NCBI GenBank assembly: GCA_964617945.1
Contig: CAZTXA010000001.1
Span: 1 to 60,846, forward strand
DNA from: an uncultured archaeon
Lineage (GTDB): Archaea; Nanohalarchaeota; Nanosalinia; Nanosalinales; Nanohalalkaliarchaeaceae
Reading direction: 5' to 3'
DNA length: 60,846 bases
Shown here: piece by piece, positions 4,087-60,846 of the stretch
Numbering within the stretch: position 1 is the stretch's first letter
Layout: each line of letters starts with the position of its first letter
Notes under the pieces: model-generated
Databases searched by the model: none
What the model was told of the DNA's origin: nothing
Seen by the model: the letters and a program-made list of their open reading frames with translations, nothing else
Made by a program: the position numbers and the translations under genes

Positions 4087-4115
4087 ACCAATCCCTTGTC
4101 CAATCCCCCTATTTA

Positions 4116-5081
4116 TCAGTGGCGTACGATACGGAGCGGGACGCCGCCTGCAATGTCTTCCCGGTGTTCCGCGATGCGTCGCCGGACGGCGTCCGAGTAC
4201 TCGGTCACACGGCACCGCTCCCCGTCCTCGACCACCAGTGGGTCCACGGCCCGCGGCTTCGTCTCCCCCACCAGGTCGGGGTCCTCCGCGTCGATCTCGA
4301 CAGTGAACCCGTCGTCGAACAGCTCCAGCACCTCTCCAACCCGCTCCACGTCAGACTGCCGCAGCTGCTGCAGCACCTCCCTGTCGGTCCCGAACAGGTC
4401 GTCCTCCGACAGTTCACCTGCGTCCAGTGCGGCCCGGATGGCGTCCGCGAACAGTTCGAAGACTGCGATTTCCCGCGGGTTCGCCCACCACCGCTCGTCC
4501 GCCTCGATGTACCGTAACGCGTATTCCTCCGCGGTGTCCCTGTCGGTCAATACAAACCTGTCGTCGTGGACGGCCAGTGCGTCGATAAACTGCTCAAGCC
4601 GTTCCCCGGTGTTCCCGTGCCAGTCCCGCAGGAAATAGTCGATACGGTCCGCGCACAGGTCTGGCAGGTCGCGCTCCAGCAACGGGAACGCCGACTCGTC
4701 CAGGATCTCCTCCAGCCCGAATCCGTGCCCCTCCAGGATATCAGGGATCTCTGACCCCCTGATAACCTCCTCCATGAACCGTTCATGGTATTCGTGGTCT
4801 TCATCGTCGAATACGAAGTCCGCGACGTGGGAGAACGCGGTGTGCGGGACGTCGTGCAGCAGGCCGGCGACCTGTTCCCGGAGCGGCGCGTCGAACCGTT
4901 GCAGCAGGAGCATGACCCCGATCGAGTGGTCGTACCGCGTCACCGGTTTCTCATCGATCAGGGAGACGGGGCCGGCCTGGTTCACGTGCCGCAGCCGCTG
5001 CACAGGACTGGAGCGGATCAGGTCAGTGAGGACAGGACTGTCTACCGTCACCGGTCCGTACACAGGATCATCGATCTCCAC
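4116..5081 (-). CDS. HD-domain metal-dependent phosphohydrolase
   Basis: RYDHSIGVMLL ... GLLHDVPHTAFSHVADF (H...HD...D pattern). I set the start at in-frame GTG 5081 (VEIDDPVYGPVTV), 4 nt after the upstream gene's stop. The upstream 52 codons of the track ORF are R/S/T-rich and overlap the 5086-5721 CDS. Confidence 0.75.
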   Translation of the reverse strand: MEIDDPVYGPVTVDSPVLTDLIRSSPVQRLRHVNQAGPVSLIDEKPVTRYDHSIGVMLLLQRFDAPLREQVAGLLHDVPHTAFSHVADFVFDDEDHEYHERFMEEVIRGSEIPDILEGHGFGLEEILDESAFPLLERDLPDLCADRIDYFLRDWHGNTGERLEQFIDALAVHDDRFVLTDRDTAEEYALRYIEADERWWANPREIAVFELFADAIRAALDAGELSEDDLFGTDREVLQQLRQSDVERVGEVLELFDDGFTVEIDAEDPDLVGETKPRAVDPLVVEDGERCRVTEYSDAVRRRIAEHREDIAGGVPLRIVRH

Positions 5082-8042: not shown

Positions 8043-8537
8043 ATGGAGCGGGACACAGTCCTCCGCATCATATTGGGATTGTCCATCGTCGGGCTGGGGG
8101 TCGCGGCGTACCAGACCTACGAGCACTACTTCCTTACGACTGGTATGTGTGACCTGTCATCAACGTTCTCCTGCTCTGTCGTGACAGAGTCACGCTTCGG
8201 CGAGTTCCCGCCGAACTCCGGGATTGCGACCGCGGCGTGGGGCATGGCGTGGTGGCTTGGTGTCGCCGCACTCTCCTACACCGAGGTGAAAGGCGGTGAA
8301 TGGCTAGAAAACCAGGAGTTCTACCTGTTCTCGTATATCGCGGGCGGGATGGTGTTCGTGGTGTACCTCTTGGTGGTGGAGCTGTACATCCTTCCTGCAG
8401 AGACTGGCGCCCTGATCATCTGCCCATTCTGCACAGTCCAACACGTTATAATACTGGCACTCCTCCCGCTCTCCTACATCCGTCTGGCCAAACCGTTGAA
8501 AACATATATCGAAGACGTATTCTCCATGGAAGCGTGA
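8043..8537 (+). CDS. vitamin K epoxide reductase (VKOR) family membrane thiol oxidoreductase
   Basis: Four to five TM helices. Loop cysteines CDLSSTFSC and an in-membrane CxxC (IICPFCTVQH). TATA TTTTATA lies 24-30 nt upstream. Confidence 0.8.
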   Translation: MERDTVLRIILGLSIVGLGVAAYQTYEHYFLTTGMCDLSSTFSCSVVTESRFGEFPPNSGIATAAWGMAWWLGVAALSYTEVKGGEWLENQEFYLFSYIAGGMVFVVYLLVVELYILPAETGALIICPFCTVQHVIILALLPLSYIRLAKPLKTYIEDVFSMEA

Positions 8538-8835: not shown

Positions 8836-9606
8836 ATGTCTGACGACAGTAGCGTTACACTGGAGTTCAAGACAACGCACGCCCTTTTCATGGCGTTCGT
8901 GGTCGGCGTGTTCGCCGGCGGGTTTCTCATGTCGGCAGTGACCACGGTCACAGGCCCGACAGGCGCTGCCGTCCAGGACGGACAGACCGCGCCGACACAG
9001 CCGACGGATACAGGTGACAGTCCCTCCCCGTCTGGCGATCAGGGCACTGAAACCGTCAGTATGGACCAGATAGAGCTGGAGGGAGAGCCGACCATGGGGA
9101 GCAGTGACGCGCCGGTCACCCTGGTGATGTATGAAGACTTCGAATGCCCGTTCTGCCAGCAGTTCGAGCAGAACGCGGTCCCCCAGATCGTAAGCAACTA
9201 TGTTGAATCCGGCGACGTCCGGCTGGTCTGGAAGGACTTCCCGCTGGCACAGCTCCACCCATGGGCGACACCGGCCGCGGAGGCGATGGAGTGCGTCTAC
9301 CGGCAGGACGAGGACGCGTTCTGGACGGTGAAGGACCGGATATTCGAGAACCAGAACACGCTGTCGACCAGCAATGTACAGGACCAGATCAAGTCCTGGG
9401 CCGCCGAGGAAGGCGTGTCTGAGAGCGCGGTCCAGTCGTGCATCGACAGCGGCGACGCCACACAGGAAGTCGAGGACGACCAGTCCGAGGGGCGCACCAT
9501 CGGCGTATCCGGCACACCGTCAGTGGTTGTGAACGGCGAGTTGATCGTCGGTGCACAGCCGTTCAGCCGGTTCGAATCAGCGATCGAATCGGCGCTTTCC
9601 GGATAG
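8836..9606 (+). CDS. DsbA/BdbD-family thiol:disulfide oxidoreductase, membrane-anchored
   Basis: TM helix. APVTLVMYEDFECPFCQQFEQ, WKDFPL, and the cis-Pro region GVSGTPSVVVNG. TATA TATATAA lies 26-32 nt upstream. Confidence 0.85.
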   Translation: MSDDSSVTLEFKTTHALFMAFVVGVFAGGFLMSAVTTVTGPTGAAVQDGQTAPTQPTDTGDSPSPSGDQGTETVSMDQIELEGEPTMGSSDAPVTLVMYEDFECPFCQQFEQNAVPQIVSNYVESGDVRLVWKDFPLAQLHPWATPAAEAMECVYRQDEDAFWTVKDRIFENQNTLSTSNVQDQIKSWAAEEGVSESAVQSCIDSGDATQEVEDDQSEGRTIGVSGTPSVVVNGELIVGAQPFSRFESAIESALSG

Positions 9607-42956: not shown

Positions 42957-44687
42957 CTACGCGAGTCGCTGATGGACGTCCGGGAGCGGGTCGACGGTCT
43001 GGCCGTCAACCTCGACCTGGTAGTTGCCGGTGACGATGTCGCTCACCCGTTCGTAGGTGGCTTCATCGTTCAGGTCGCTGTTCTCCCGTGCGTCGACGAT
43101 CTCCTGCGTGTAGGTCGCTACAGCCTCAACGTCGTCGGAGAGGCTGAGCTGGTCGCCTGCACTGAACCGGGCGTCCTGGTGGAGGTACCCGGCGTCCAGC
43201 GCCTCGTTGAGGTGCTGGGTGTACTCGGCGACCGTGTCTGAACGGTCCGTGACCTCTGCAGCGAAGGAGTCGAGTCGCTCGTGGTCGGCCAGCTGGTCTG
43301 GCTGGTCGACGCTGAGCGCGTCGTCGTACTGGTCGACCTCCGCCACAACTTCGTGGAACCGGTTCGCCGCACTGACGATGTCGTCCAGCATGCCGCCGGA
43401 GCTGAACCCGTCGCCGAGCCGGTCCATCTTCGCGTCCAGTGCGTCGTACCACTGGTCAAGCCGGTCTGTCGAAGCGGTCTCCGGCTTGTACTGGTCTTCT
43501 GTGGAGAATCCCTGGTTCTTCTCCATCCGGAGATCGACAGAGATCTCGTGAAGCAGGCCGTTCTGGCCGAGCATCTCGGCCATCTCCTGCTGGACATCAT
43601 GCAGTCGGTCGGCAAGCTCGATCTCTTCCTCGTAGAAGCTGTCGATGGTCTCTGCCGTCTGCTCCACGGTCTGGTCCATGTCCGTCAGGAGCCGGTCGTA
43701 GTCCCGCAGCAGTCGCCGATCCTGGCTCTCGATCTCGTGCTTCTTCGCCTCTGTCGGCGCCATCTGCGCTTCCCGGACGGTCTGCTGGATTTCGTCCTCG
43801 GTCGCAGCAGCCACATCGTCGGCGAGCTCGTACACGGTCGCACGGTGCTCGATGATGGAGGTGACGTCCCCGTCATCGGGGTCGACGATGCTCCCAAAGT
43901 TTTCATGCGTGTGGATCGCGTCCAGGACGAGCCGGTGCTCGTACTGTCCTTCCGGTACTTCACCGAGGCTCCGGCCCGACCCGGCTTCGTCCGCAAGGTC
44001 AGCGGTCGTCGTGTCGTCCGCCGATAGCCGGGGGACAACAGAGCGTTCCAGGAGCGTGGCGTCGAAGTCGGTCTCTTCGTCGTAGTGGTTGTCGAGGAAC
44101 CGGTCCTCGTCCATCGCGTCGTCTTCACTGTATGTCCGGTTGGTGTCCCTGTTCAGGGTCTCTCGGGCGTAGTCGTTGCGCGCCTCTTCGTGCATTCCGG
44201 ACTGGAGTCCTTCGACGTTCGCGTCCTGCACGATGTCCGCGACCGTCTTCTGCTGGTCAAAGAACGCGGCCGTTCCTGCGTCGTCGCCGTCACCGCCGAC
44301 GTCGTCGACAGCCACTTCTGTCGTGTGCCGGACCAGTTCGACACGTTCCTCTGTGCTCATCTCGTCGACGATCTCTTCCGCCTTGTCGAGCGGCGGGACT
44401 TCCTGGTCGGGCGTGCTGTCGTCTGTCGGAGGTGTCACAGGCTCGTCAGGGGTATCACCGTCGCCCTCACCTGTCTCTCCAGAGCCGTGTGCCTCTGCAG
44501 CAGAAGCGACATCGTCGTCGCGGGCCTCTTCATGTGTCCGTTCCTCGTCGGACGGTGACTCTCCGCTTCCGTCCGTCATAAGGGGTTTATCGCTGTCAGC
44601 ATCCGTGATCGGGGCGGATGCATCCGTTTCGGTCTGTTTGTTCCGGGAGTTTCCTAGCTGTTCAATCCAGTTACGCCAGTTAGGCAT
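42957..44687 (-). CDS. hyper-acidic soluble protein with coiled-coil segments (uncharacterised)
   Basis: Start ATG 44687 (MPNWRNWIEQLG). No TM helix or signal peptide. D/E content is very high. It is divergent from the 44862 gene. Confidence 0.6.
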   Translation of the reverse strand: MPNWRNWIEQLGNSRNKQTETDASAPITDADSDKPLMTDGSGESPSDEERTHEEARDDDVASAAEAHGSGETGEGDGDTPDEPVTPPTDDSTPDQEVPPLDKAEEIVDEMSTEERVELVRHTTEVAVDDVGGDGDDAGTAAFFDQQKTVADIVQDANVEGLQSGMHEEARNDYARETLNRDTNRTYSEDDAMDEDRFLDNHYDEETDFDATLLERSVVPRLSADDTTTADLADEAGSGRSLGEVPEGQYEHRLVLDAIHTHENFGSIVDPDDGDVTSIIEHRATVYELADDVAAATEDEIQQTVREAQMAPTEAKKHEIESQDRRLLRDYDRLLTDMDQTVEQTAETIDSFYEEEIELADRLHDVQQEMAEMLGQNGLLHEISVDLRMEKNQGFSTEDQYKPETASTDRLDQWYDALDAKMDRLGDGFSSGGMLDDIVSAANRFHEVVAEVDQYDDALSVDQPDQLADHERLDSFAAEVTDRSDTVAEYTQHLNEALDAGYLHQDARFSAGDQLSLSDDVEAVATYTQEIVDARENSDLNDEATYERVSDIVTGNYQVEVDGQTVDPLPDVHQRLA

Positions 44688-44835
44688 GATTTCACCATGA
44701 AGTGACAACAGGAACAAACATTTTTAAAATCGTCGGCAGTACCGCAAATATGGCGAATATAGGGCCTATAGTTGCCCGCCGGGGCCGGTTGATGCGGCCG
44801 GGGTCGCCCGCCCCACCACAACCTTTTTATATTGT

Positions 44836-44856
44836 TACTGTTAAATGATAACAGTA
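44836..44856. repeat. inverted repeat TACTGTTA-aatga-TAACAGTA between the TATA box and the start of the 44862 gene (candidate operator)
   Basis: Read directly from the sequence. TATA TTTATAT at 44826-44832, ATG at 44862. Confidence 0.4.
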
Positions 44857-44861
44857 GATTG

Positions 44862-46616
44862 ATGAGTCGACAATACGATACCAACCTGCTATCGTTCGGC
44901 CTCATGATGAAGGATCTCCGGGGGGAGAGCCGGGCGCTGGACCAGTACGACGATCCGCTGGAGCAGGCGGCCGAACTCGTCTCGGAGTACGGAGAGGGAG
45001 ATATCGGGGAGCGTGCCGATGAGATATATGAGGACCTGGTGGACCAGGAGGCATACCCGCACGACAGCGATACACTGCAGGACGCGTTCTGGATCGTCCA
45101 CGGACTCACCGTACAGGACCGCGGGCCGGACGAGATCCCGGAACTCGGTTCACAGGCATACGACGAGTTTGTACAGGATGTATTAGATGAGGCAGCGGCC
45201 CTGGGCCCGTCCGACGCGGAGCAGCGCTGGGGGTACCAGGTCAGGGGCGTCGATCTCGGGGCTGTTGAGGCGGTGCTCCGGTATGTCGGTGATACAGAGA
45301 GCGACCTGGAACCGCTCCAGCAGGACATCCAGGATATAGGCGATACTATCCGGGAGCACGAGGGATACGAGGACTGGCTCTATGACACGCTGGACGACCT
45401 TCTCGGCGGCGAGGAACCGCCGACAGGCCCTGATACGGGGGGTGACGGACCGGCTGGCCCCCATGCAGAGGCGACAGGGATCGAAGAGCTGAACCTGTAC
45501 GGCGGCAGCGTCCCTGATGAACTCAGTGATCTTCTCGACGACGATGCCACGATAGCGGTCGAAGACGGCCGGCTTTACATCGAAGGGATACCGGACTCGG
45601 TAGATATCAGCGGGTTTGACGATATCGAATCCCTCCTTGAGGCGCTGGAAGACGCAGATTTTGGCGCTGAAGCCACTGGCGGGGATGCGGCCGCGTCCAA
45701 CGTCGACGTCGACGGAACGGACACGACGCCGATCGGCGAGGGCCTCGCGGCGATAGCCGAGGCACTCAGCGAGGACGAGGACGGAGACGGGGACGACGAT
45801 GGTGACGGTGAGGACGGTCCCGACGTCCGCGAACTGGATGTCGATTTCGACATCGTGACGACAGAGTACGATCCGGCTGGGTGGTGGGACAGGCTCGGAT
45901 ACCGCCTGGGTGGAGAAGAACAGGAAGCATACGTCAAAGTGACAGGCCGGGACAGTGCAGAATATGTCAACGAGTACCTTACAGACCTCGATCAGACCTT
46001 CGATGCGGCCGTGTTCACGGAATATCGGACGCTCGGTGACGACGAAGATTCGGGGGAGAAGATTCCAGACTTCGACAGTATCAAGGAAGAACTCGATGTG
46101 GAACTGGATATGGACCCGGACGAGCGGAAAGTATTCGGGAACTCGATTTTCATGCCGATGGACTTCGTCGGCTCGCGCGCAGCCGGTAACAGGGTCTCGC
46201 TCGATCCGGGAGAATCGCTGTGGGTCGAGGGATGGATAGACGGGGATACACGCGCCGCCGCTGCCGGGTCGCGGTACGACGAGATCGAGATTCCACGGCT
46301 TGCCGGTTCAGGAGATTCGGAAGGGTACTACGACACCTGGAAGGATCTCGCGGTCGACGGTGCGAAGGCCGCCCGTTCGACGATGCACAAGATCGATACG
46401 CACCCGGTTATTGCTGGGAAGAACCCGGGCGTGTGGGGCGAGAACGCGCCGGAAGAGGACGGTACGCCGCCTACCATGGCGCAGCGGTGGGCGCGCAGCA
46501 AGAAGGATGAGCCCCAACAGCTGCGTGCGGCGGCGAATTTCGGGATGGAGCATCTCCTGAGTGGAACTGCTGCCGGTGTTTTGGGCCACGTGATAGGACA
46601 GGGCACCGGGAATTAG
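44862..46616 (+). CDS. hyper-acidic soluble protein (uncharacterised), sharing two motifs with the next gene
   Basis: Start ATG 44862 (the track's TTG 44832 lies on the TATA box). Shared motifs VTGRDSAEYVNEYLTDL...AAVFTEY and AGKNPGVWGEN. Poly-acidic EDEDGDGDDDGDGEDGPD. Confidence 0.6.
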   Translation: MSRQYDTNLLSFGLMMKDLRGESRALDQYDDPLEQAAELVSEYGEGDIGERADEIYEDLVDQEAYPHDSDTLQDAFWIVHGLTVQDRGPDEIPELGSQAYDEFVQDVLDEAAALGPSDAEQRWGYQVRGVDLGAVEAVLRYVGDTESDLEPLQQDIQDIGDTIREHEGYEDWLYDTLDDLLGGEEPPTGPDTGGDGPAGPHAEATGIEELNLYGGSVPDELSDLLDDDATIAVEDGRLYIEGIPDSVDISGFDDIESLLEALEDADFGAEATGGDAAASNVDVDGTDTTPIGEGLAAIAEALSEDEDGDGDDDGDGEDGPDVRELDVDFDIVTTEYDPAGWWDRLGYRLGGEEQEAYVKVTGRDSAEYVNEYLTDLDQTFDAAVFTEYRTLGDDEDSGEKIPDFDSIKEELDVELDMDPDERKVFGNSIFMPMDFVGSRAAGNRVSLDPGESLWVEGWIDGDTRAAAAGSRYDEIEIPRLAGSGDSEGYYDTWKDLAVDGAKAARSTMHKIDTHPVIAGKNPGVWGENAPEEDGTPPTMAQRWARSKKDEPQQLRAAANFGMEHLLSGTAAGVLGHVIGQGTGN

Positions 46617-47396: not shown

Positions 47397-48266
47397 ATGG
47401 GCGTCTCCGGACGTAGGAACGTGGCGAAGGCGGCGGCGGTAACGGCGGTCACTGCCTCGTTTTCCGTGCTAGCTGCTGCACAGTACGGTGGCGGGGGCCG
47501 GTTCGCCCAGATGTTAAACACGTATTTCCTCCCGCAGGGGGCGCAGGTAACAGGGCTGTCTGGACTTATTTTCAGCGTCTTCATCCCGTTCGCGATTGTC
47601 GCCATCCTCCTGGTGGCCGGGCTACAGACCATCGAAGTGTTCAACCGGCGCCAGGCATCCCTGCTCGGCGTTCTTATCGCGCTGTTCATCGTCCCCTCTG
47701 GCGGGTACAAGATAATCTCTGAGACGTTACTGGCGTTGTTCGGACTGGGTCAGACAGGTGTTTCCGCGCCCGGCCTTACAGGCACTCCGCTCGATCCACT
47801 CCTCGAGTCCCCGCTGTGGATGGGAATCCTGGCCTACTTCCTCTCTGTCTACGCGCTAAACAACTTCGTGACGGGTGCGGAGACCGGTTTCACCTTACGA
47901 GAGCACCTCGCCGGTGGTACCGTCGCCGTGCTCGTATACGTGGGACTCTCAGGGTCACAGACCTTCCTCATACTTGCGGTGTTCTGGGGGCTCATCCTCA
48001 TATTCGGCTGGAAGATGTTCAAACGCGGGACCGGTATGGGCGGTGGGACCGGGTTCCTCATCGCGATATTCGGTATTTTCCTGCTTGGTATCGGTGTGAC
48101 GCGAATGGAGATCCTCCCTGAGGAAATCCAGGCGATGGGAAGCACCGTGACCGGATATATATCGGGAGCGTTCTGGGTGCTGCTGATATTGGCTGTTGTG
48201 GCCGGGGCGGTAGCACTCGGGGTGAAGGCATATCAGGAAGGCCTGCTTCAAAAACTGATTTCGTAG
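47397..48266 (+). CDS. polytopic membrane protein, member 1 of a four-gene tandem paralogous family (uncharacterised)
   Basis: About 8 TM helices. The N-terminal helix region (LSGLIFSVFIPFAIVAILLVAGLQT) aligns with the family core. TATA TTTAAAT at 47366-47372. Confidence 0.6.
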   Translation: MGVSGRRNVAKAAAVTAVTASFSVLAAAQYGGGGRFAQMLNTYFLPQGAQVTGLSGLIFSVFIPFAIVAILLVAGLQTIEVFNRRQASLLGVLIALFIVPSGGYKIISETLLALFGLGQTGVSAPGLTGTPLDPLLESPLWMGILAYFLSVYALNNFVTGAETGFTLREHLAGGTVAVLVYVGLSGSQTFLILAVFWGLILIFGWKMFKRGTGMGGGTGFLIAIFGIFLLGIGVTRMEILPEEIQAMGSTVTGYISGAFWVLLILAVVAGAVALGVKAYQEGLLQKLIS

Positions 48267-48337
48267 GTGAGGGAGTGAGGTGATACCTGATTGTCAGTGG
48301 GATTGAGGCGTGGATCGGTGTTGCCGAGCGGACAGGA

Positions 48338-48805
48338 GTGTACGGCTACGTACTCCCGTTCCTGGTGACGTTCCTGATCATCTATGGTGTGATGGAGAAG
48401 GTGGAGCCGTTCGGCGGCGGACAGAGCAGGCTACACGCCCTGTTCGCCTCACTCGTCGGCCTGTTCCTGCTCGCATTCGCTCCTGGCGGCGTCATCGGGG
48501 CGTTCTTCTCCAACTTTTTCGGCGCCGTTGCAGTCGTGATGGTCGGGTTAGTGCTGGTGATGGTCGTATACGCGCTCGTATTTGGACAGCCAACTGCGGA
48601 CTCGGCCTTTGTCAAGGGGCTGGGGGTCATCGGTGCGACCGCTGCCGCAGTCCTGTTCCTCATCTGGGGCGGGTTCTCGCTGGTATTCCCGGAGGACGTT
48701 TCGCTATACGGCGGGCTTGGGGGGTACCTTGACGTCGTTGTCGTGCTCGGCCTCCTCGCGCTGCTCGGCTGGGCACTGTTCGGCGGCGGGAACGCGGGAG
48801 AGTAG
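48338..48805 (+). CDS. polytopic membrane protein, family member 2 (start probably upstream at a non-AUG codon)
   Basis: YGYVLPFLVTFLIIYGVMEKV aligns with FFEFGLPILFFMAVYYGLLMKT and FFKYGAPFLLMFALVFGLTTKL. See the finding on 48277-48340. Confidence 0.6.
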   Translation: MYGYVLPFLVTFLIIYGVMEKVEPFGGGQSRLHALFASLVGLFLLAFAPGGVIGAFFSNFFGAVAVVMVGLVLVMVVYALVFGQPTADSAFVKGLGVIGATAAAVLFLIWGGFSLVFPEDVSLYGGLGGYLDVVVVLGLLALLGWALFGGGNAGE

Positions 48806-48869
48806 CGGGAGTAACTACGGCAGCGGAGAAACTTATTTAAACAGGGCGGACGGTAAACGGCAATAGATA

Positions 48870-49502
48870 ATGGATATAACCCAGAAGCTGGTCGGTGCCG
48901 CTGCATCCGGGTTCCTGATGGTGCAGGTCGCTGCAGCCCAGAACCAGGGGACGATCGGCTCCGGCATCCAGTCGCTCTGGGATATCGGGTTCTTCAAGTA
49001 CGGCGCCCCGTTCCTCCTCATGTTCGCCCTTGTATTCGGTCTCACTACCAAGTTATCGATATTCGAGAACGACCAGGTCAGCGCGATCGTCGCAGTGACC
49101 GCGGGACTGTTCGTCGACGCCGCAATCCTGCAGGGATACGTGAGCGGGCCGACACTGGAGGTATTCCTGTTCCAGTTCTTCGGCGCGTTCGCAGTCATCG
49201 CGTCAGGCCTGCTCGTCGTCGTGATGGCGGCCGGGCTCGGAGGATATGAAGGAGAGTGGGCGTTCGGTGATAACGCTAAACGCGCGTTCTTCGTGCTGGG
49301 CGGTCTCGCAGCGGTGACCGCGTTCATCGGCTGGGGCGGCCTCCAGTGGCTTGAAATCTCTGCCGCACAGTCCGAGGTAGGAAACCTCGGCTTCTTCAGT
49401 AATGACCTGTTCATCCTGCTCGTCGTTGTCGTCCTTATCGTCGGTCTCGTCTGGTGGGTGACCGGTGGCGAGGAAGGCGGCGGTGGCGAAGAAGGCGAAT
49501 AG
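48870..49502 (+). CDS. polytopic membrane protein, family member 3
   Basis: SGIQSLWDIGFFKYGAPFLLMFALVFGLTTKLSIFEND. G/E-rich C-terminus. TATA TTTAAA lies 29-34 nt upstream. Confidence 0.6.
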   Translation: MDITQKLVGAAASGFLMVQVAAAQNQGTIGSGIQSLWDIGFFKYGAPFLLMFALVFGLTTKLSIFENDQVSAIVAVTAGLFVDAAILQGYVSGPTLEVFLFQFFGAFAVIASGLLVVVMAAGLGGYEGEWAFGDNAKRAFFVLGGLAAVTAFIGWGGLQWLEISAAQSEVGNLGFFSNDLFILLVVVVLIVGLVWWVTGGEEGGGGEEGE

Positions 49503-49548
49503 AACCGCCACATATAAAAGCAGATAGTATTTAATTCGTTGTAGGACG

Positions 49549-50049
49549 ATGGCAACGCCTGGATTCGAGTTATTGTTCCAGAACCTGCAGTCCATCGGGT
49601 TCTTCGAGTTCGGCCTCCCTATCCTGTTCTTCATGGCCGTGTACTACGGCCTGCTGATGAAGACCGGGACGATCAGCGACGAAGAATCCGTCAACGGGAC
49701 CGCAGCCATCGCACTCGCGTTCCTGACCACGCTCGGTATCTATACGTTCATCCCGTTCAGCATCTTCCCACAGTTCTTCGCCGCACTCGCCGTTCTGGTC
49801 GTCCTCGTCCTCGGCGGTATGATGCTGATGGGGATGCTGGGCGTCGAGGTAGGCGGTGAGATGGACGAGCGGGCGCAGCGGTTGATGGTCATCGGTGTCG
49901 TTGCCCTCCTGATAATCGTCGGCGTCCCACTGTTCGGGTCCATGGACATCGGGTTCGAGCTGACGGACGACTTCATGAATTTCATCCTGACGATCGCCAC
50001 GATCGCGGTCATCGGCTACGTCATCCGGTCGATGGGCGGCGGAGAATAA
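49549..50049 (+). CDS. polytopic membrane protein, family member 4
   Basis: FQNLQSIGFFEFGLPILFFMAVYYGLLMKTGTISDEE. Four to five TM helices. Confidence 0.6.
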   Translation: MATPGFELLFQNLQSIGFFEFGLPILFFMAVYYGLLMKTGTISDEESVNGTAAIALAFLTTLGIYTFIPFSIFPQFFAALAVLVVLVLGGMMLMGMLGVEVGGEMDERAQRLMVIGVVALLIIVGVPLFGSMDIGFELTDDFMNFILTIATIAVIGYVIRSMGGGE

Positions 50050-50050
50050 G

Positions 50051-50809
50051 CTACTCTTCCTGCATCTCCTTGACCAGTGCCGACAGTTCACGCGTATTCT
50101 CGACAAGCGACGGCAGCACCTGTTCGAACGCCTTCTCCATCCCCCCGATCCGGGACTGTGACTCGGCCAGGTAGTCCTCGATCTCCTCCACCTTCTGCAC
50201 GACTTCCTGCTGGTCCTCGTCCTCCCTGATCTCCAGCTCCTCCACACGGTCCTCCAGATCTGCGACCCGGCCCTGCAGGCTATCAAGTTCGCTGTACACG
50301 GTATTGAACTCGTCCTCCACGTCCGTGAAATGCTCGGAGACGATCGTCTCGATCAGCTCTTCCTCCTCCATCGACACGCCCGACGGTTCGCCGAACCCGG
50401 AGTCATCGTCCTCGGGGGGTTCCTCCGGTTCCGCCGGCTCCGGTTCCTGCTGCGGTTGCTGCGGGGCGGGTTGCTCCACCGGTGCAGCGGGTGACTGTTC
50501 CTCCTGGGGGGCAGGTGCCTGCGCGGTGGACTGGCCGCCCGTCGCTCCTGGAGCGGGGGACTGCCCTGTGTTCCGCGGCGCCGCCTGCTGGCCGCCAGAC
50601 TGTCCACGTTCAACGGTCCGTTCCTGGACGGCCTGGTTGATCGCCTCGTTGATCTCACCGTAGGAATACCCGCGGTCCCGCAGCTGTTCCGTTATCTCGC
50701 TCTCCGCGTAGCCGTCGTCGCTTAACCGCCGGACCTCGTCCACGGGCGGCCGGCCACGGCCCTCCGCCTCTCCCTCTTCACCGCCCCGGAACCGGTCGAG
50801 AACACCCAT
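50051..50809 (-). CDS. three-part protein: small helical N-domain, Q/P-rich linker, C-terminal coiled coil (uncharacterised)
   Basis: VDEVRRLSDDGYAESEITEQLRDRGYSYGEINEAINQAV. Linker ...QAPAPQEEQSPAAPVEQPAPQQPQQEPEPAEPEEPPEDDD. Coiled coil LDSLQGRVADLEDRVEELE.... Confidence 0.55.
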   Translation of the reverse strand: MGVLDRFRGGEEGEAEGRGRPPVDEVRRLSDDGYAESEITEQLRDRGYSYGEINEAINQAVQERTVERGQSGGQQAAPRNTGQSPAPGATGGQSTAQAPAPQEEQSPAAPVEQPAPQQPQQEPEPAEPEEPPEDDDSGFGEPSGVSMEEEELIETIVSEHFTDVEDEFNTVYSELDSLQGRVADLEDRVEELEIREDEDQQEVVQKVEEIEDYLAESQSRIGGMEKAFEQVLPSLVENTRELSALVKEMQEE

Positions 50810-51246: not shown

Positions 51247-51349
51247 GTGCCACCGTTGTGGAGCCTTACTTATATTGTTCCCACCGCTGTCTCCACGGAA
51301 ACCGGCGCCACGGCAAAAGTATAATAGGTCGGCAGCCGAGAACCGTGGC

Positions 51350-53623
51350 ATGGCGGTCGAGGATCTTGACACGTGGGAGTACGAGTACGACGACGAGTCC
51401 GGGACGATCCGGGTCAACGCGCTGGGAAGCGTGTACGGGCCGTCGGTCGAGGACTATCCCGAAGTGATGGCCCGCGTCATCGATATCTTGCGTGAAGTCG
51501 GTGGGGCGTCCTCCATCGTCCTGTCCGCCTCCCGTGAATACGAGTACCCGGAGGAGCAGACCGAGCTGCTGCAGGAGGTGGCGCAGGCCATCCAGGACAT
51601 CACCCGCGGCGGGTACCTCGCGAAGGAGAACCTGCGGGCGAAGAAATGCGAGAAGTACTACCCGGTGTGGCGGCAGGACCTGCAGGAACTTGTCACCAAC
51701 GACCTCCGGCAGGACCCGGTGGGCGCGTACGTCAAGCTCCGCCGTGAAATCCGGCACAAGAAAGAGGAGATGGAGGACGCGTACCCGGAGACGAAACGGT
51801 GCTACAAGTTCTACATCCATGACATCCTCCAGCCACTGAAACAGCGCCTCGAGGAGACGCAGATGGTGCAGCAGGCGCAGGAGCACGTGACAGGGTACCA
51901 TGTCGGCGACCGTGCGCTCTACAGGGAGATGTTCCACCCGCTGGTCCGGCCGAACTTCATGCTTACCAAGTACATGTCGCTGCCGCCGGAGCAGGGCGAG
52001 GAGATCGACCGGTACACCATCGGGAACGACGTGGAAGTGGAGATATACCGGGTGCCGGACGAGGCCCAGCGCATCTACCACATGACCCCGCCAGAATTCG
52101 ACCTGTCCGAGGAGAAATACACGATACTGGACGCGGCACGCCGGTACATGGGCGAGCACCGGCCGGCATCGGAAGAATTTGCGAAGCCGGAGCGGATGCG
52201 GGACGTGTTCGCCAACATCGGCCGCGACATGCTGGTCGATATCGCGGACCAGATGAACACGTCGCTCTCCTCGGAAGAACTGGACAACCTCACCGACATC
52301 CTGACACGGTACACCGCCGGGCTGGGCGTCCTCGAACTGCTGTTCGCGGATACGCGGATTCAGGACGTGTACGTGAACTCGCCGGTCGGGATGGAACCGG
52401 TATTCATCTTCCATGCGGACTACGAGGAGTGCCGCACCAACCTCGTGCCGACGCGGGAGGACGCGGAGTCGTGGGCGACACGGTTCCGGATACAGAGCGG
52501 GCGGCCGCTGGACGAGGCGAACCCGGTCCTGGATACGGAGATGGAGGTGCCCGGCGGCCGTGCACGTGTGGCGGTGATCCAGGAGAACCTGTCGCCGGAA
52601 GGCCTCGGGTTCGCGTTCCGCCGGCACCGAGACGAGCCGTGGACCTACCCCTTGTTTATCGACAACGACTATTTCAACCCGCTCGCCGCCGCGTTGATGA
52701 GCTTCCTGATCGACGGCGGCCGGACCATGCTCATCTCCGGGACGCGCTCCGCGGGAAAGACCTCGCTGATGGGTGCGTCCCTCCTCGAACTGATGAAGAA
52801 GACACGGCTGGTCACGGTCGAGGACACGCTCGAACTCCCTGTTCCCGCCCTGCAGGACATCGGGTACAACGCGGAGCGGATGAAGAGCCGGTCAGTCATC
52901 ACCCAGGTCGAGTCAGAGCTGCCCGCGGACGAGGCCATCAGGACATCGCTCCGGCTGGGCGATTCCGCACTCGTGCTGGGCGAGGTCCGGAGCGACGAGG
53001 CAAAAGCATTGTACGAGGCGATGCGTATCGGGGCCGTCGCCAACTTTGTCGGCGGTACGATCCACGGCGAGGACGCGTACGCGGTGTTCGACAGGGTGGT
53101 GAACGATCTCGGTGTACCGGCGACCTCGTTCAAGGCGACGGACATCATCGTCTCCGCCAACCGGCTGCGTAGTCCCTCTGGGACAGACCGGTTCCGCCGT
53201 GTGACCGGTATCACCGAGGTCCGGAAGGACTGGACCGAGGACCCGGCGCGGGAGAACGGCTTCGTGGACCTGATGCGGTACGACGCGGAGCAGGATAAAC
53301 TGGTGCCGACCGAGACCCTGCTGAACGGTGAGTCCGTCATCCTCAACAGGATCGCGGACAACGTCCGGGAGTGGAAGAACGACTGGGACGCGGTATGGGA
53401 GAACATCCAGCTCCGGAAACGCGTCAAGCAGCGGCAGGTCGACCTTGCCAGCCACGGCGACCACGTCCTTGAGGCACAGTTCACCTCGAAGGCGAACGAG
53501 AAATTCCATACCATCTCCGACCAGGTGAAGGAGGAGTACGGCGAGCTTGACCCGGAACGCATCTACGCACGGTGGAACGAGTGGGCGGAGCGAACCGCCA
53601 AGCAGGGACTTGAGGAGCGGTAA
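51350..53623 (+). CDS. pilB: type IV pilus/archaellum-superfamily secretion ATPase (PilB/FlaI/GspE family) with a long N-terminal domain
   Basis: Walker A ISGTRSAGKTSL, Asp box VTVEDTLEL, Walker B/His box ALVLGEVRSDEA...GGTIHG. Start ATG 51350. TATA TATAATA at 51320-51326. Confidence 0.85.
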   Translation: MAVEDLDTWEYEYDDESGTIRVNALGSVYGPSVEDYPEVMARVIDILREVGGASSIVLSASREYEYPEEQTELLQEVAQAIQDITRGGYLAKENLRAKKCEKYYPVWRQDLQELVTNDLRQDPVGAYVKLRREIRHKKEEMEDAYPETKRCYKFYIHDILQPLKQRLEETQMVQQAQEHVTGYHVGDRALYREMFHPLVRPNFMLTKYMSLPPEQGEEIDRYTIGNDVEVEIYRVPDEAQRIYHMTPPEFDLSEEKYTILDAARRYMGEHRPASEEFAKPERMRDVFANIGRDMLVDIADQMNTSLSSEELDNLTDILTRYTAGLGVLELLFADTRIQDVYVNSPVGMEPVFIFHADYEECRTNLVPTREDAESWATRFRIQSGRPLDEANPVLDTEMEVPGGRARVAVIQENLSPEGLGFAFRRHRDEPWTYPLFIDNDYFNPLAAALMSFLIDGGRTMLISGTRSAGKTSLMGASLLELMKKTRLVTVEDTLELPVPALQDIGYNAERMKSRSVITQVESELPADEAIRTSLRLGDSALVLGEVRSDEAKALYEAMRIGAVANFVGGTIHGEDAYAVFDRVVNDLGVPATSFKATDIIVSANRLRSPSGTDRFRRVTGITEVRKDWTEDPARENGFVDLMRYDAEQDKLVPTETLLNGESVILNRIADNVREWKNDWDAVWENIQLRKRVKQRQVDLASHGDHVLEAQFTSKANEKFHTISDQVKEEYGELDPERIYARWNEWAERTAKQGLEER

Positions 53624-57405: not shown

Positions 57406-57567
57406 ATGCTGAGGAGAGGAGAAGGCCGTTCCATCGGGCTCGTATTCGTTGTCCTGCTTGTTGTTGCGCTCCTCGGCGCAGTCCTCCTGCTCGGAGTGGG
57501 GAAGGGACTGGCGGACACGATAACCGCGACGCTCGATTCACGTATAGCGTCTTGGCTGGTAACATGA
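57406..57567 (+). CDS. mini prepilin-like protein (53 aa)
   Basis: MLRRGEGRS/IGLVFVVLLVVALLGAVLLLG. TATA TATTTAA at 57373-57379. Below the ORF-track cut-off. Confidence 0.5.
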   Translation: MLRRGEGRSIGLVFVVLLVVALLGAVLLLGVGKGLADTITATLDSRIASWLVT

Positions 57568-58247
57568 TACAGAGGAAAGGGTTCACCTTCAATATCCGGA
57601 TTGTGATATTTCTGGCGCTGGCGTTGATGACTGCAGTATTGCTGATAACCGTGCCGAAAGGACATGCGGAGGAGACGACACAGCGCGGGACCGAGTCGAT
57701 AGAGAACGCATCAGGTGCTGAACAGGTCTCCCGCGACCAGACCCTGATAAACCCGGGGTTTGAGGTATCCGGCCAGGGAGGGTGGACCTGTTTCGGGGAC
57801 GAGGCACGGCAGGGCGTCCCCGACTCGTGCGTGTACTTCCCGTCTCAGAGCTTTGACCCGAGCGTCGACCCGCAGGAAGGCCGCAACGTCGGGTATGTGT
57901 CGCACGGTGAAGGCGCGTGCGGGATCCACGGATTCGGGCAGCGGGTTGTCGTACCGGAGACGACCACGACGCTCGAGTTCCAGATGAAGACAGAACTCGC
58001 ACTCGGCAGGGAGGCCGGCGTCTACATCCTGGACGCGGACGGTTCTCTGATGGAGTCACGGGTGAACGAGAACACGGGCAGCCGGACAGCCACCACCTCG
58101 GCGTGGGAGGAGAAACAGGTCGACCTGTCCGGCTCTGTGGGGGATGAGGTACAGATTATCGTGGGGAACGCGGAGACCGGTTCGGACTGCGACCGCGGCG
58201 GCCAGTACAAGATATGGGTCGATGACTTCAGCTTCGCGATAAACTGA
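57564..58247 (+). CDS. prepilin-like protein with a C-terminal CBM/galactose-binding-like jelly-roll domain
   Basis: Start ATG 57564 (ATGA overlap). MIQRKG/FTFNIRIVIFLALALMTAVLLI. INPGFEVSGQGGW resembles the N.gFE.g...W opening of CBM4_9-type modules. It ends in IWVDDFSFAIN. Confidence 0.6.
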   Translation: MIQRKGFTFNIRIVIFLALALMTAVLLITVPKGHAEETTQRGTESIENASGAEQVSRDQTLINPGFEVSGQGGWTCFGDEARQGVPDSCVYFPSQSFDPSVDPQEGRNVGYVSHGEGACGIHGFGQRVVVPETTTTLEFQMKTELALGREAGVYILDADGSLMESRVNENTGSRTATTSAWEEKQVDLSGSVGDEVQIIVGNAETGSDCDRGGQYKIWVDDFSFAIN

Positions 58248-58310: not shown

Positions 58311-59987
58311 ATGCTGTCGCGACGGCGGCCGGGACGGGTAACCATGCATCGTCGAGTGCGGAGCGGAGCGCTCTCCCTCGGCGTCCTGTTGACGCTTCTC
58401 GTGGTCGTTATCGTGGCAAGTGTCGCAGCGTACTCCCTCCAGGGCATCGTTACCCCGGCAGAGGAACGGGTGTCGGAGCAGACTGACCGTATCCCGGAGC
58501 GTGGTGAAACCAACGGTGGCGGGGTCGAATCGACCAATATAGAGGCCGCGCAGGAATTCGTCGTCTGCCCCGCCTCATGCGGCGCTGTTATCAATACCGA
58601 TAAGGGGTCACAGACGTTCAGTCGTTCCGGGAACTACCGGTTACCGTTCCTCAGCCTCCACAGCGGGGAGACGACAACGGTGAACAGCGTCTCCGACCTC
58701 CCGGCCGGTTGTTCAGCCTGGCTGCACCAGGATCTCCGGGGCGTGGATCAGGAACAGTGGTACTCGCAGGCTCCCGAGGGCTCCCTGGAAGTCAAAAGCG
58801 GACAGGAGCTTGAATCCCACGATGCAGAGTTCGCGGTGATAGCGCCGAAGGAACAGTCATGCCGGGAGGGCCTGAGCTTGATCCGCTACGTTGTCCGGGG
58901 AGAGCGGAACGACCACGCGGTCGGAGGTGGCAAGTTGCACACCCACGTCATCTTCAGTGCGATGCACGATTCCACGCGTGATTACCGGATAACGCTGCAG
59001 AACGAGCAGTGTGAGGTTGAACGGGATACAGGATGGAACTCGTATGGGCCGAACGCGTGGTGGTGGAAGGGCTGGAAGGTCGACGACCCTGACTCGAACC
59101 TGCACCAGCCGTACCAGGTCAATATCTGGAACCGAGAGCACTCAGCGGACGAACCAGAGTTCACTTTCGTCGGCTGCGAACCCGGTGGCTCTGAATGTCC
59201 TGGAGCGACAGGGTACGGCGAGGCCTGGTGTACGCCAGGCGAGAGCGACAGCAGTCCCGACGAGGACCCGACCATCTCTAACGTGGAATACGAGAAGAAC
59301 AGCGGGAACGAGCTCGACTTCACGGTTTCGGTCGAAAACAATGATGACTACTCCATCCGGGCGATGGTGAAGTTCGAGCAGAACAACGGCGATGTCTACG
59401 GGAACTGCCCTGGCGGTGCAGGATGCCCCACCCAGCAGATCGAGGGCGGCGGGGCAGCCGTATTCGAACACACGACGAACTGGAAGTCAGGGTACGGACG
59501 GGCCGACTTTAAACCCGACTTCGATATCTCGCTCTGGGTCGAGAATAGTGACGGCGACTTTGAGCTCGTGAACCGTGAGAACTATGAGTGCTGTCCCGGG
59601 ACGGATACGGGCAGTGGAACGGAGTCATGGGACTTCACGATAAACAGTGCCGAGATCTACGAGAACGGGCATAAGGACGCGACCACACGAAGCGATCCGA
59701 AGGCAAAGGTTACCCTGGCAGACAATTCGCATGAGGAGACGAGCAAGATTGATGACGCCCAGAATCCAGAGTGGGACGCCACCCTGTTCACGGACAAGCC
59801 GCGAGAGGCACTGACCGCGCTCACAATCGACATCGACGACTACGATGATACCACATGGGATGATGACATCGGTGAATGCGATTTCAACGTGGACGACAGC
59901 AACTTCGAGGACGGCTCAGAGTTTACACTCACCAAGTCGTGCGGGACGGTGTTCGATGTGACGTTCACAATCAGTCCCGCAGGGTGA
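58311..59987 (+). CDS. large prepilin-like protein with a Cys-rich middle region and a C-terminal C2-like domain
   Basis: RRVRSG/ALSLGVLLTLLVVVIVASVAAY. TATA TATTAAG lies 23-29 nt upstream of ATG 58311. The C-terminal part (SDPKAKVTL...NPEWDATLF...LTIDIDDYDDTTWDDDIGECDF) is C2-like. Confidence 0.65.
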   Translation: MLSRRRPGRVTMHRRVRSGALSLGVLLTLLVVVIVASVAAYSLQGIVTPAEERVSEQTDRIPERGETNGGGVESTNIEAAQEFVVCPASCGAVINTDKGSQTFSRSGNYRLPFLSLHSGETTTVNSVSDLPAGCSAWLHQDLRGVDQEQWYSQAPEGSLEVKSGQELESHDAEFAVIAPKEQSCREGLSLIRYVVRGERNDHAVGGGKLHTHVIFSAMHDSTRDYRITLQNEQCEVERDTGWNSYGPNAWWWKGWKVDDPDSNLHQPYQVNIWNREHSADEPEFTFVGCEPGGSECPGATGYGEAWCTPGESDSSPDEDPTISNVEYEKNSGNELDFTVSVENNDDYSIRAMVKFEQNNGDVYGNCPGGAGCPTQQIEGGGAAVFEHTTNWKSGYGRADFKPDFDISLWVENSDGDFELVNRENYECCPGTDTGSGTESWDFTINSAEIYENGHKDATTRSDPKAKVTLADNSHEETSKIDDAQNPEWDATLFTDKPREALTALTIDIDDYDDTTWDDDIGECDFNVDDSNFEDGSEFTLTKSCGTVFDVTFTISPAG

Positions 59988-60110: not shown

Positions 60111-60846
60111 ATGGTAGCGCTCCTCCCGATAGGGATGAGCCGTGCAGGCCGCACAACGGATGAGACTATCTGGCTATTCGTCAAGACCCTGGCCGTCCTT
60201 CTGGTGCTGTGGTCGATCGGGAGCATGCTTATCTCATTCGAGGGGCAGATTGCAGGGGCAGAGTTCGACCTGAAATCGTTCCGGGCGGAGATAGATAAGG
60301 GGTGCTCAGTCGGGCACCAGCGGGACGAGTTCCAGTACACGTTCGAGACCGGACCGGCAGAGGTCGCTGTCACCGGGGATAGCACGTACCGGATGGAGCT
60401 CGACAACGGCCGCGTGGTGACGGCGGATGCGCAGTCCTGTGAATCGGTGGAGATGCCGAACAGTCCGATGGAGGTACCGCCGGACGGCCAGGTCCTCATG
60501 AAGCTGGAATACACAGACGATAAGTCGGTAACCATCGTGCCGGGCTGTGGCGACAACGTGTGCGGGTCCGGTGAGTCGTATGATATCTGTCCGGAAGACT
60601 GTCTCACACACGCCTCCATCGACAACCCGCAGGGCATGTACCCGAGGGATAGCGGATGGTGGCTGGTCGGGAGTGGGACCGGGGAGTCGAAGATTTTCGA
60701 ATACAACGAGGACTGGTCCTACACTGGTACAAGCTATGACTTGACCAGCGCTGATTCACGGATGCGGGATATTCACGAGGCTGACAACGGCGACTGGTGG
60801 ATGACCGGGTTCGGGGAATGGGGGATGAACAGGGAGGGCGGTGAGG
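60111..60846 (+). CDS. prepilin-like/secreted protein, 5' part (continues beyond the window)
   Basis: The frame is open from ATG 60111 to the window end and is not in the track (no stop). MSRAG/RTTDETIWLFVKTLAVLLVLWSIGSML, a CGDNVCGSGESYDICPEDC knot motif, then W/G-rich repeats. Confidence 0.55.
   Translation, partial: MVALLPIGMSRAGRTTDETIWLFVKTLAVLLVLWSIGSMLISFEGQIAGAEFDLKSFRAEIDKGCSVGHQRDEFQYTFETGPAEVAVTGDSTYRMELDNGRVVTADAQSCESVEMPNSPMEVPPDGQVLMKLEYTDDKSVTIVPGCGDNVCGSGESYDICPEDCLTHASIDNPQGMYPRDSGWWLVGSGTGESKIFEYNEDWSYTGTSYDLTSADSRMRDIHEADNGDWWMTGFGEWGMNREGGE

Follow-up and report, generated by a model that had tools for sequence, protein, structure and literature searches.

Analysis of a 60,846-nucleotide stretch of archaeal DNA (contig CAZTXA010000001.1, positions 1 to 60,846; referred to here as the window) revealed a block of pilin-like genes directly downstream of genes for a type IV pilus-like assembly machinery. 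The sixth gene of this block encodes a 558-amino-acid protein (the C2 protein) that consists of a pilin-like N terminus, about 390 residues without a known family, and a C-terminal C2 domain. The C-terminal 120 or so residues are a genuine C2 domain of the PKC family and no chance match. According to the interpretation that we favor, to which we assign a probability of roughly 0.45, the C2 protein would be a minor pilin of modular build or a pilin-like subunit of the cell surface, the distal Ca2+-loaded C2 domain of which would bind anionic lipids of the host. We infer Ca2+ binding, lipid binding, and incorporation into the pilus.

The original prediction, made from the sequence without database searches, placed a C2-like domain at the C terminus of a pilin-like protein, at positions 59625 to 59984 of the forward strand. 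This segment is the C-terminal end of the open reading frame (ORF) of the C2 protein, and its translation is exactly the peptide on which the prediction was based (SWDFTINSAEIYENGHKDATTRSDPKAKV...TFTISPAG). Comparison of the isolated 120 residues with Pfam revealed a match to the C2 family (PF00168) with an E value of 8.4e-10 and a score of 39.2 bits, 17 bits above the curated cut-off of 22 bits. With the full 558-residue protein, the match covered residues 454 to 532 (E=1.4e-8, 35.3 bits). The reversed sequence and five shuffled versions of the same 120 residues gave no C2 match at E<=10, which indicates that the acidic composition of the domain (21 of 125 residues, or 17%, are Asp) does not account for the match. 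A phmmer comparison with PDB sequences matched the C2 domains of PKC-alpha, PKC-beta, and PKC-gamma, with a best E value of 1.3e-4. The signature SDP...NP.W...D.D...D.G is retained, and the conserved positions of the domain coincide with the C2 signature. The ratio of nonsynonymous to synonymous substitution rates (dN/dS) relative to a 68%-identical orthologue, P0002, was 0.08 across the domain. This result indicates that the domain is a conserved coding region under selection. The rarity of C2 domains in prokaryotes, which had also been pointed out at the outset, agrees with the literature (PMC3495828, PMC12922734).

Searching for relatives with a word index and the full protein returned the protein itself and one homologue, P0002 (559 amino acids), which carries the NCBI name 'MAG: C2 domain-containing protein [Candidatus Nanohaloarchaea archaeon]' and lies on a contig (L001; GCA_042218745.1) with the same gene order as the window. 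The word-indexed search gave no matches with the C2 domain alone and only three already known members with the family profile. A scan of GTDB representative genomes with the full protein and a PilC alignment revealed no relative, and a metagenome scan with the C2 family alignment gave pattern matches, none of which was confirmed by tblastn. When the domain profile was run exhaustively with HMMER against 1.84 billion protein representatives, only 90 matches at E<=1e-3 were obtained. Most of these were long, charge-balanced proteins of eukaryotic type with multiple C2 domains (e.g., a Trichomonas C2 protein and a 'Ca2+-dependent lipid-binding protein'). Four further single-domain clusters (P0006, P0008, P0009, and P0042) combine a strongly hydrophobic, pilin-like N terminus with a C2 domain; the C2 domain of P0008 and P0009 directly follows a Gly/Asp-rich linker, and P0006 has a longer region between N terminus and C2 domain. 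Three short metagenome proteins (P0061, P0074, and P0076) have no hydrophobic N terminus as recorded but contain the invariant Cys pair described below. The prokaryotic family was accordingly taken to comprise nine members (P0001, P0002, P0006, P0008, P0009, P0042, P0061, P0074, and P0076). The family hidden Markov model scored these nine at 102 to 165 bits and all other matches at 48 bits or less, and BLAST alignments of the window domain with the eukaryote-type matches showed approximately 22 to 37% identity across 60 to 129 residues. Within the PKC-type C2 family, the nine proteins form a distinct prokaryotic clade of small size and are no recent copy of any sampled eukaryotic gene.

The predicted structure agrees with the family assignment. 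An AlphaFold2 model of residues 434 to 558, generated with a multiple-sequence alignment of the nine family members, reached a mean predicted local distance difference test (pLDDT) score of 86.4 and a predicted template modeling score of 0.83. The model is an eight-stranded antiparallel beta-sandwich with C2 connectivity, the strands of which span residues 439 to 556. Superposition on PDB structures with Foldseek yielded 50 listed matches, all with a probability of 1.00, and nearly all of them are C2 domains or C2-containing proteins. The best matches were to the C2 domain of cPLA2 (6iej and 1rlw), with E values of approximately 2.5e-6 to 5e-6 and template modeling (TM) scores of 0.67 to 0.70; Trichomonas C2 domains, C2A and C2B of extended synaptotagmin, dysferlin C2A, perforin C2, and PKC-epsilon C2 were also listed. 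TM scores of the top C2 matches ranged from 0.6 to 0.74, and cPLA2 C2 was aligned across its whole length. In the model, strand 1 (residues 439 to 449) leads directly into the loop with the first two putative ligand Asp residues. Because strand 1 precedes this loop directly and the alignment covers the full length of cPLA2 C2, the AlphaFold2 model and the Foldseek ranking suggest type II (cPLA2/PLC-delta) strand order.

Comparison of the residues with respect to Ca2+ binding was based on PKC-alpha and on C2A of synaptotagmin-1 (Syt1); the PKC-alpha segment was independently confirmed by the PDB alignment. Neither of the outcomes named at the outset as refuting the original prediction occurred: profile and fold comparisons both pointed to C2, and the acidic residues map to loops. 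In the model, the loop that connects strands 1 and 2 carries D456 and D462, and D510, D512, and D518 are placed where strand 5 ends and in the loop that leads to strand 6. The five-Asp ligand set is complete and occupies the same alignment columns as the ligands of the two references (D456 corresponds to D187 in PKC-alpha and to D172 in Syt1 C2A, D462 to D193 and D178, D510 to D246 and D230, D512 to D248 and D232, and D518 to D254 and D238), the ligand numbering of the references being established. In addition, T515 is aligned with the Syt1 ligand S235. With five canonical Asp residues in two predicted Ca2+-binding loops, the domain is a putative Ca2+ binder. All five Asp residues are retained in the orthologue, P0006, P0008, and P0009 and likewise in P0042, but with Glu at the last position. 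The residue following the first Asp corresponds to M173 of Syt1, a membrane-inserting position; it is Trp in P0006 and P0009, Leu in P0008, and Val in P0042. The Trp in loop 3 (W516) is present in the window protein, the orthologue, and P0009 and is missing from P0006 and P0008. Within an otherwise very acidic domain, the segment SDPKAKV contributes Lys residues, K464 being present in six of six archaeal members and K466 in four of the six. Extra Cys pairs (CxxC or Cx4C) were also observed inside the Ca2+-binding loops of P0006, P0009, and P0042 (loci L002, L003, and L006), namely NCDAVGCHQD in loop 1 and DCDDCVP in loop 2, and P0009 carries a long Cys-rich C-terminal extension after the C2 domain.

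Analysis of the genomic localization revealed that the C2 gene is encoded together with a PilB-type ATPase, a PilC/TadC platform, and other pilin-like genes (Table 1). Seven consecutive ORFs on the forward strand follow the PilB/PilC pair directly, and their N termini consist of basic residues, a Gly, and then approximately 20 to 25 hydrophobic residues; the junctions read, in order, RKG/V, RAG/I, RQG/I, GEG/R, RKG/F, RSG/A, and RAG/R. A crude scan for the motif [KR]x0-1[GA] plus a hydrophobic stretch marked six of the seven ORFs of the block, compared to 3 of the 49 other ORFs of the window. The PilC-like protein of the window shares 88% identity with its L001 orthologue and 67% with that of L006, and in both of these loci the PilB/PilC genes are followed in the same order by the pilin-like block that includes the C2 gene. 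In L003 and L004, the C2 gene is located downstream of a C-terminal PilC-like fragment and among pilin-like genes, a resemblance that was judged by eye from the translations. In L002, it lies among pilin-like genes and adjoins an Alba gene, on a contig without PilC. For the C2 gene of L006, the upstream in-frame sequence provides the N terminus MTVSKG/TIGIRP followed by a hydrophobic stretch.

The C2-bearing loci have a guanine-plus-cytosine (GC) content of 53 to 61%. A further 59 more distant PilC-like relatives, with 26 to 38% identity, were found mostly on low-GC contigs from diverse metagenomes, some of them 0.3 to 0.76 Mb long, as expected for DPANN genomes. Several of these distant loci contain a series of RKG-type pilin-like genes, including genes for proteins of 565 to 906 amino acids. 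Such very large RKG-motif genes without C2 were observed downstream of PilC in L008, L011, L012, L013, and L050, which suggests that large C2-less pilin-like proteins may carry other modules at the equivalent position. The C2 module appears to be specific to a narrow lineage and to have been grafted onto a general pilus design.

The N terminus of the C2 protein resembles a class III signal and pilin helix. The putative signal reads ...RRVRSG/ALSLGVLLTLLVVVIVASVAAY, and the orthologue has RRA/QISLGV at the equivalent place. A full-length AlphaFold2 model, generated from a two-sequence alignment, was unusable as a whole (pLDDT 42.9) and contains a helix at residues 23 to 42. The match to Pilin_N (PF07790) was weak and below the cut-off (E=0.061), and the NCBIfam pilin models gave no match to the C2 protein. 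Its gene neighborhood and the motif at its N terminus support the earlier description of the protein as pilin-like. We regard the C2 protein as a likely pilin. In the middle region (residues 46 to 433), which had no match in Pfam, dN/dS was 0.05 to 0.16; the model is poor there, but strands are predicted.

The C2 protein contains 14 Cys residues. Two of them, C523 and C544 (C90 and C111 of family alignment A5), are invariant in nine of nine members of the prokaryotic family and absent from both eukaryotic C2 references aligned, PKC-alpha and Syt1. No hydrophobic segment besides the N terminus was noted when the sequence was read by eye. Elsewhere in the window, a VKOR-family protein (8043-8537, forward strand; Pfam E=1.1e-18) and a DsbA-like thioredoxin (8836-9606, forward strand; E=9.1e-35) are encoded approximately 300 bp apart; this pair could form extracytoplasmic disulfides, which would fit Cys-rich pilin-like proteins. 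The apparent lack of a second hydrophobic segment, the Cys content, the invariant pair, and the VKOR/DsbA-like genes together suggest that the C2 protein may undergo oxidative folding outside the cell and have an extracellular location.

On this basis, the following mechanism is proposed. It takes up the idea of the original prediction that such a domain, presented on a pilus subunit, could bind a lipid surface such as the membrane of another cell, an idea that we consider plausible. The genes would encode a type IV pilus-like system (Tad/PilBC type) of a halophilic, probably nanohaloarchaeal symbiont. The N-terminal helix would anchor the C2 protein in the membrane and subsequently in the filament or in a short pseudopilus, in which the protein, because of its size, would most likely be a low-abundance or tip subunit. 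The Cys-rich middle region and the C2 domain would be extracellular and disulfide stabilized. Brines are rich in divalent cations, and in Ca2+-rich brine the Asp cluster would be permanently metal loaded. In haloarchaeal membranes, anionic lipids predominate and make up nearly the whole lipid complement. The Ca2+-loaded loops, with exposed Trp or other hydrophobic residues, might bridge to lipid phosphate groups at the membrane surface of a haloarchaeal host. The result would be a direct grip of the symbiont on the host bilayer, which might serve attachment and possibly the membrane contact needed for lipid acquisition. In favor of this interpretation, the closest structural neighbors of the domain are lipid-binding C2 domains (cPLA2, perforin, and dysferlin). 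Sequence features in its favor are the complete set of putative Ca2+ ligands, the Trp, Leu, or Val at the position of Syt1 M173 in four family members, W516 in loop 3, and the largely conserved Lys residues of SDPKAKV. Lipid synthesis is missing from Nanohaloarchaeota (PMC9563170; bioRxiv 10.1101/2025.08.05.668663), their contact with hosts, like that of other DPANN archaea, is suspected to be mediated by pili (PMC11291902), and in one genomic study pilins could not be annotated in nanohaloarchaeal metagenome-assembled genomes (PMC9563170).

Several points weigh against a pilus subunit that binds host lipids. Proteins of halophiles are acidic anyway, so that Asp-rich loops alone are weak evidence, and multimolar salt largely screens the electrostatic attraction to membranes. 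The S-layer of the host stands before the membrane, and many C2 domains bind proteins and not lipids. The identity of the host is itself something that we infer. Pilin profiles matched the C2 protein weakly or not at all, as described above, and the residue at position -2 of the putative cleavage site is Ser, neither Lys nor Arg. A prepilin peptidase (Peptidase_A24) was not detected among the window ORFs scanned; its gene may lie in another part of the genome. A C2 domain is encoded in none of the 59 more distant PilC loci, which indicates that the domain is no general requirement of such pili. Finally, the C2 domain of a cyanobacterial nitric oxide synthase (NOS), the one bacterial C2 domain that has been characterized, is a Ca2+-sensitive regulatory domain and no membrane binder (PMC12922734).

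The alternative that survives best, although we consider it rather unlikely, retains the same architecture but has the C2 domain adhere to something other than lipid (the S-layer glycoprotein of the host, glycans, or a different protein), with Ca2+ only stabilizing the fold. Such a role would suit the S-layer as the first host surface that a pilus meets, the protein-protein contacts made by many eukaryotic C2 domains, and the absence of the loop 3 Trp from P0006 and P0008; the adjoining pilin-like genes with other modules could then divide ligand specificities among them. The NOS C2 domain, which is regulatory and binds protein surfaces (PMC12922734), points in the same direction. However, the full canonical set of Ca2+ ligands is conserved across the family, hydrophobic or aromatic residues are kept where the loops of synaptotagmin-type C2 domains insert into membranes, and the best structural matches bind lipid (cPLA2 bound to phosphatidylcholine, perforin, and dysferlin).

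It is unlikely that the C2 protein is no filament subunit at all and that its N terminus is a plain membrane anchor or a bindosome-type class III signal, the C2 domain acting as a short-range adhesin on the symbiont's own surface; this idea overlaps with either model of the ligand. The size of 558 residues is far above that of typical pilins and would agree with this idea, as would the weak or absent profile matches and the lack of a prepilin peptidase among the scanned ORFs; in Sulfolobus, proteins with class III signals (Bas system) form surface structures and not long pili. The conserved position of the gene argues for a filament subunit, since it is kept in the pilin-like block after PilB/PilC in L001 and L006 and after the PilC-like fragment in L003 and L004. 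Enrichment of the N-terminal motif in the block is strong, and bacteria provide well-documented examples of large modular pilins (PMC8179133).

A role of the C2 domain as a Ca2+ sensor or regulator, the occupancy of which would switch pilus assembly or adhesion, is very improbable. The NOS C2 domain is such a switch (PMC12922734), and a P-type Ca2+-ATPase-like gene is present in the window, approximately 54 kb away, but the predicted location of the C2 domain is outside the cell, in brine, where fluctuation of Ca2+ around micromolar affinities would not be expected, and the protein has no partner domain to regulate. The least probable explanation, that chance or the composition of an Asp-rich halophile sequence produced the resemblance to C2, could draw on the Asp content and on a weak partial match (probability 8.6%) obtained with hhalign between the family alignment and a single cPLA2 sequence, but it is effectively refuted by the Pfam score and the negative controls, by P0006 and P0008, which exceed the Pfam C2 cut-off individually and independently, by the AlphaFold2 model, the listed PDB matches of which are nearly all C2 domains or C2-containing proteins, and by conserved positions that are exactly those of the C2 signature.

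Since the orthologue already bears the automatic label 'C2 domain-containing protein' in databases, detection of the C2 domain is in itself not new; what is new is its pilus-locus context and the implication of that context. The mode of DPANN attachment, S-layer breach, and lipid supply is a standing question, in which pili are suspected and their subunits are mostly not annotated. The locus supplies concrete candidate pilins, one of them with a domain of well-understood and easily assayed activity (Ca2+-bridged binding of anionic lipids), so the idea of pilus-mediated membrane contact becomes directly testable. The family also adds a clear case to the C2 domains of prokaryotes, of which very few have been listed. 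A more far-reaching claim, which we regard as doubtful, is that a canonical Ca2+-binding C2 domain of eukaryote type was acquired or retained by a clade of nanohaloarchaeotal symbionts, which present it on type IV pili and use it to seize the bare lipid bilayer of their haloarchaeal hosts. If true, this would provide a first molecular handle on membrane contact or lipid acquisition by lipid-auxotrophic nano-archaea. An extracellular prokaryotic C2 domain with an intact Ca2+ site would likewise be a first and would bear on the view of the PKC-type C2 domain as a eukaryotic invention.

Table 1. Coordinates of the pilus-locus genes and of the parts of the C2 protein in the window
Feature	Position	Strand	Remarks
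PilB/FlaI-type assembly ATPase	51347..53623	+	Pfam T2SSE E=4.3e-12; mechanical ORF from 51008, likely start MAVEDLDTWEY at ~51347
PilC/TadC-like polytopic membrane platform, 710 aa	53627..55759	+	Pfam T2SSF E=3.6e-4, 20.9 bits, sub-threshold (cut-off 25.2)
Small pilin-like gene, 64 aa	55885..56079	+	MRRKG plus hydrophobic stretch
Pilin-like gene, 208 aa	56076..56702	+	GRAG plus hydrophobic stretch; N terminus resembles that of the next gene; counterpart after PilC in L001 and L006
Pilin-like gene, 188 aa	56796..57362	+	RRQG plus hydrophobic stretch
Small pilin-like gene, 53 aa	57406..57567	+	pilin-like N terminus
Pilin-like gene with C-terminal module, 227 aa	57564..58247	+	MIQRKG plus hydrophobic stretch; conserved in L001 and L006
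C2 protein gene, 558 aa	58311..59987	+	RSG plus hydrophobic stretch
C2 protein, N terminus, aa 1-45	58311..58445	+	basic leader, RSG, ~25 hydrophobic residues; class-III-signal/pilin-helix-like
C2 protein, middle region, aa 46-433	58446..59609	+	Cys-rich, strand-rich from ~aa 190; P0002 the only homologue
C2 domain, aa 434-558	59610..59984	+	
Loop between strands 1 and 2, aa 450-462	59658..59696	+	ENGHKDATTRSD; D456, D462; equivalent of Ca2+-binding loop 1
Strand 5 end and loop to strand 6, aa 510-518	59838..59864	+	DYDDTTWDD; D510, D512, D518, T515, W516; equivalent of Ca2+-binding loop 3
Cys pair C523 (strand 6) to C544 (strand 7)	59877..59942	+	putative disulfide
Next pilin-like gene	60134..60846	+	MSRAGRTTDETIW plus hydrophobic stretch; runs off window end; L001 orthologue 410 aa

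Several neighboring genes of the locus have features of their own. The 227-amino-acid neighbor of the C2 protein (57564-58247; L001 5083-5772; L006 3067-3729) was suspected to carry a CBM4_9-like lectin module at its C terminus from conserved NPGFE...GW...VWVDDF motifs, which recall carbohydrate-binding jelly rolls; Pfam, NCBIfam, and a PDB profile search gave no support for this candidate. In the pilin-like protein encoded next after the C2 protein (60134-60846; L001 7521-8753), the full-length orthologue contains repeats of the type G.WW..G......Y...W.YTGTSYD, which may form a propeller-like module; Pfam gave no match. The PilB-like ATPase of L001 (L001:1-1163) contains an intein (Pfam Intein_splicing; ...NILAHN/TLELPVPALQ), and the corresponding site of the window ATPase, RLVTVEDTLELPVPALQ, is uninterrupted. 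The divergent neighbor of the ATPase gene (50051-50809, reverse strand) encodes an acidic 252-amino-acid protein with a C-terminal heptad-like segment, probably a coiled coil as judged from its sequence; pilus loci of DPANN archaea are accompanied by coiled-coil proteins (PMC11291902). Directly upstream of the pilus locus (47397-50049, forward strand), four polytopic membrane proteins of 289, 155, 210, and 166 amino acids are encoded in a row, three of which end in a Gly/Glu-rich tail; the three that were scanned (all but the 155-amino-acid protein) had no match in Pfam.

The source organism is probably a halophilic DPANN symbiont. The proteome of the window is strongly acidic, and archaeal genes in it encode a three-domain eRF1-family protein, a TYW2/Trm5 methyltransferase, a DUF63 protein, and an ADP-forming acetyl-CoA synthetase. 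Assignment to Nanohaloarchaeota follows the MAG label of the orthologue and the DPANN-like distribution of the PilC relatives. A divergent gene pair (42957-44717, reverse strand, and 44832-46616, forward strand) encodes proteins of 586 and 594 amino acids that are extremely acidic, with approximately 25% Asp plus Glu, and had no match in Pfam or NCBIfam. A 935-amino-acid P-type ATPase (1405-4215, reverse strand) has its best matches among Ca2+-transporting types (PMR1, SERCA, and PMCA), all below the equivalog cut-offs; a link between this ATPase and the C2 protein 54 kb away is speculative.

The pilus locus resembles the CpaF/TadC type IV pilus loci of cluster-2 DPANN archaea, including Nanohaloarchaeota (PMC11291902), and the Tad-like clusters (PMC9563170), in which an ATPase and a TadC-like platform are likewise followed by small filament genes. 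The coiled-coil neighbor, as read from the window sequence, is also shared with the CpaF/TadC loci, whereas a C2 domain has not been reported in either study (PMC11291902, PMC9563170). A literature search for C2 domains together with Nanohaloarchaeota, DPANN archaea, or archaeal pilins revealed no paper that links them. The Sulfolobus bindosome likewise employs large ligand-binding proteins that have a pilin-type signal and depend on a PilB/PilC-like pair, but its proteins are sugar binders of ATP-binding cassette transporters without homology to the C2 protein. The architecture of the C2 protein corresponds to the definition of modular pilins (Raynaud et al. 2021). The modular pilins PilB (vWA module) and PilC (lectin module) of Streptococcus sanguinis (PMC8179133, PMC9934059) share with it a pilin-type N-terminal segment joined to a C-terminal binding module, and they are likewise encoded among pilin genes beside the assembly machinery. 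The window system differs in being archaeal, in having an N terminus that is not of the IPR012902 type, and in its C2 module; C2 is not among the modules given in the supplementary files of the bacterial modular-pilin survey, as far as these were accessible (PMC8179133). The C2 domain of the cyanobacterial NOS (syNOS) is also a prokaryotic C2 fold and responds to Ca2+, but it is intracellular and regulatory and has no canonical Asp ligands, whereas the window domain keeps all of them (PMC12922734).

The PKC-family C2 domains of eukaryotes (PF00168; the type II domains of cPLA2, perforin, and dysferlin C2A, and PKC-alpha by sequence) have in common with the window domain the profile, the eight-stranded sandwich, the probable strand order of cPLA2, and the five ligand Asp residues with PKC/synaptotagmin spacing. 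The window domain is distinguished from them by being archaeal, predicted to be extracellular, very acidic, and fused to a pilin-like N terminus, and by the C523/C544 pair. The perforin C2 domain is extracellular and docks its protein onto the membrane of another cell, and the extracellular placement predicted for the window protein would be the same.

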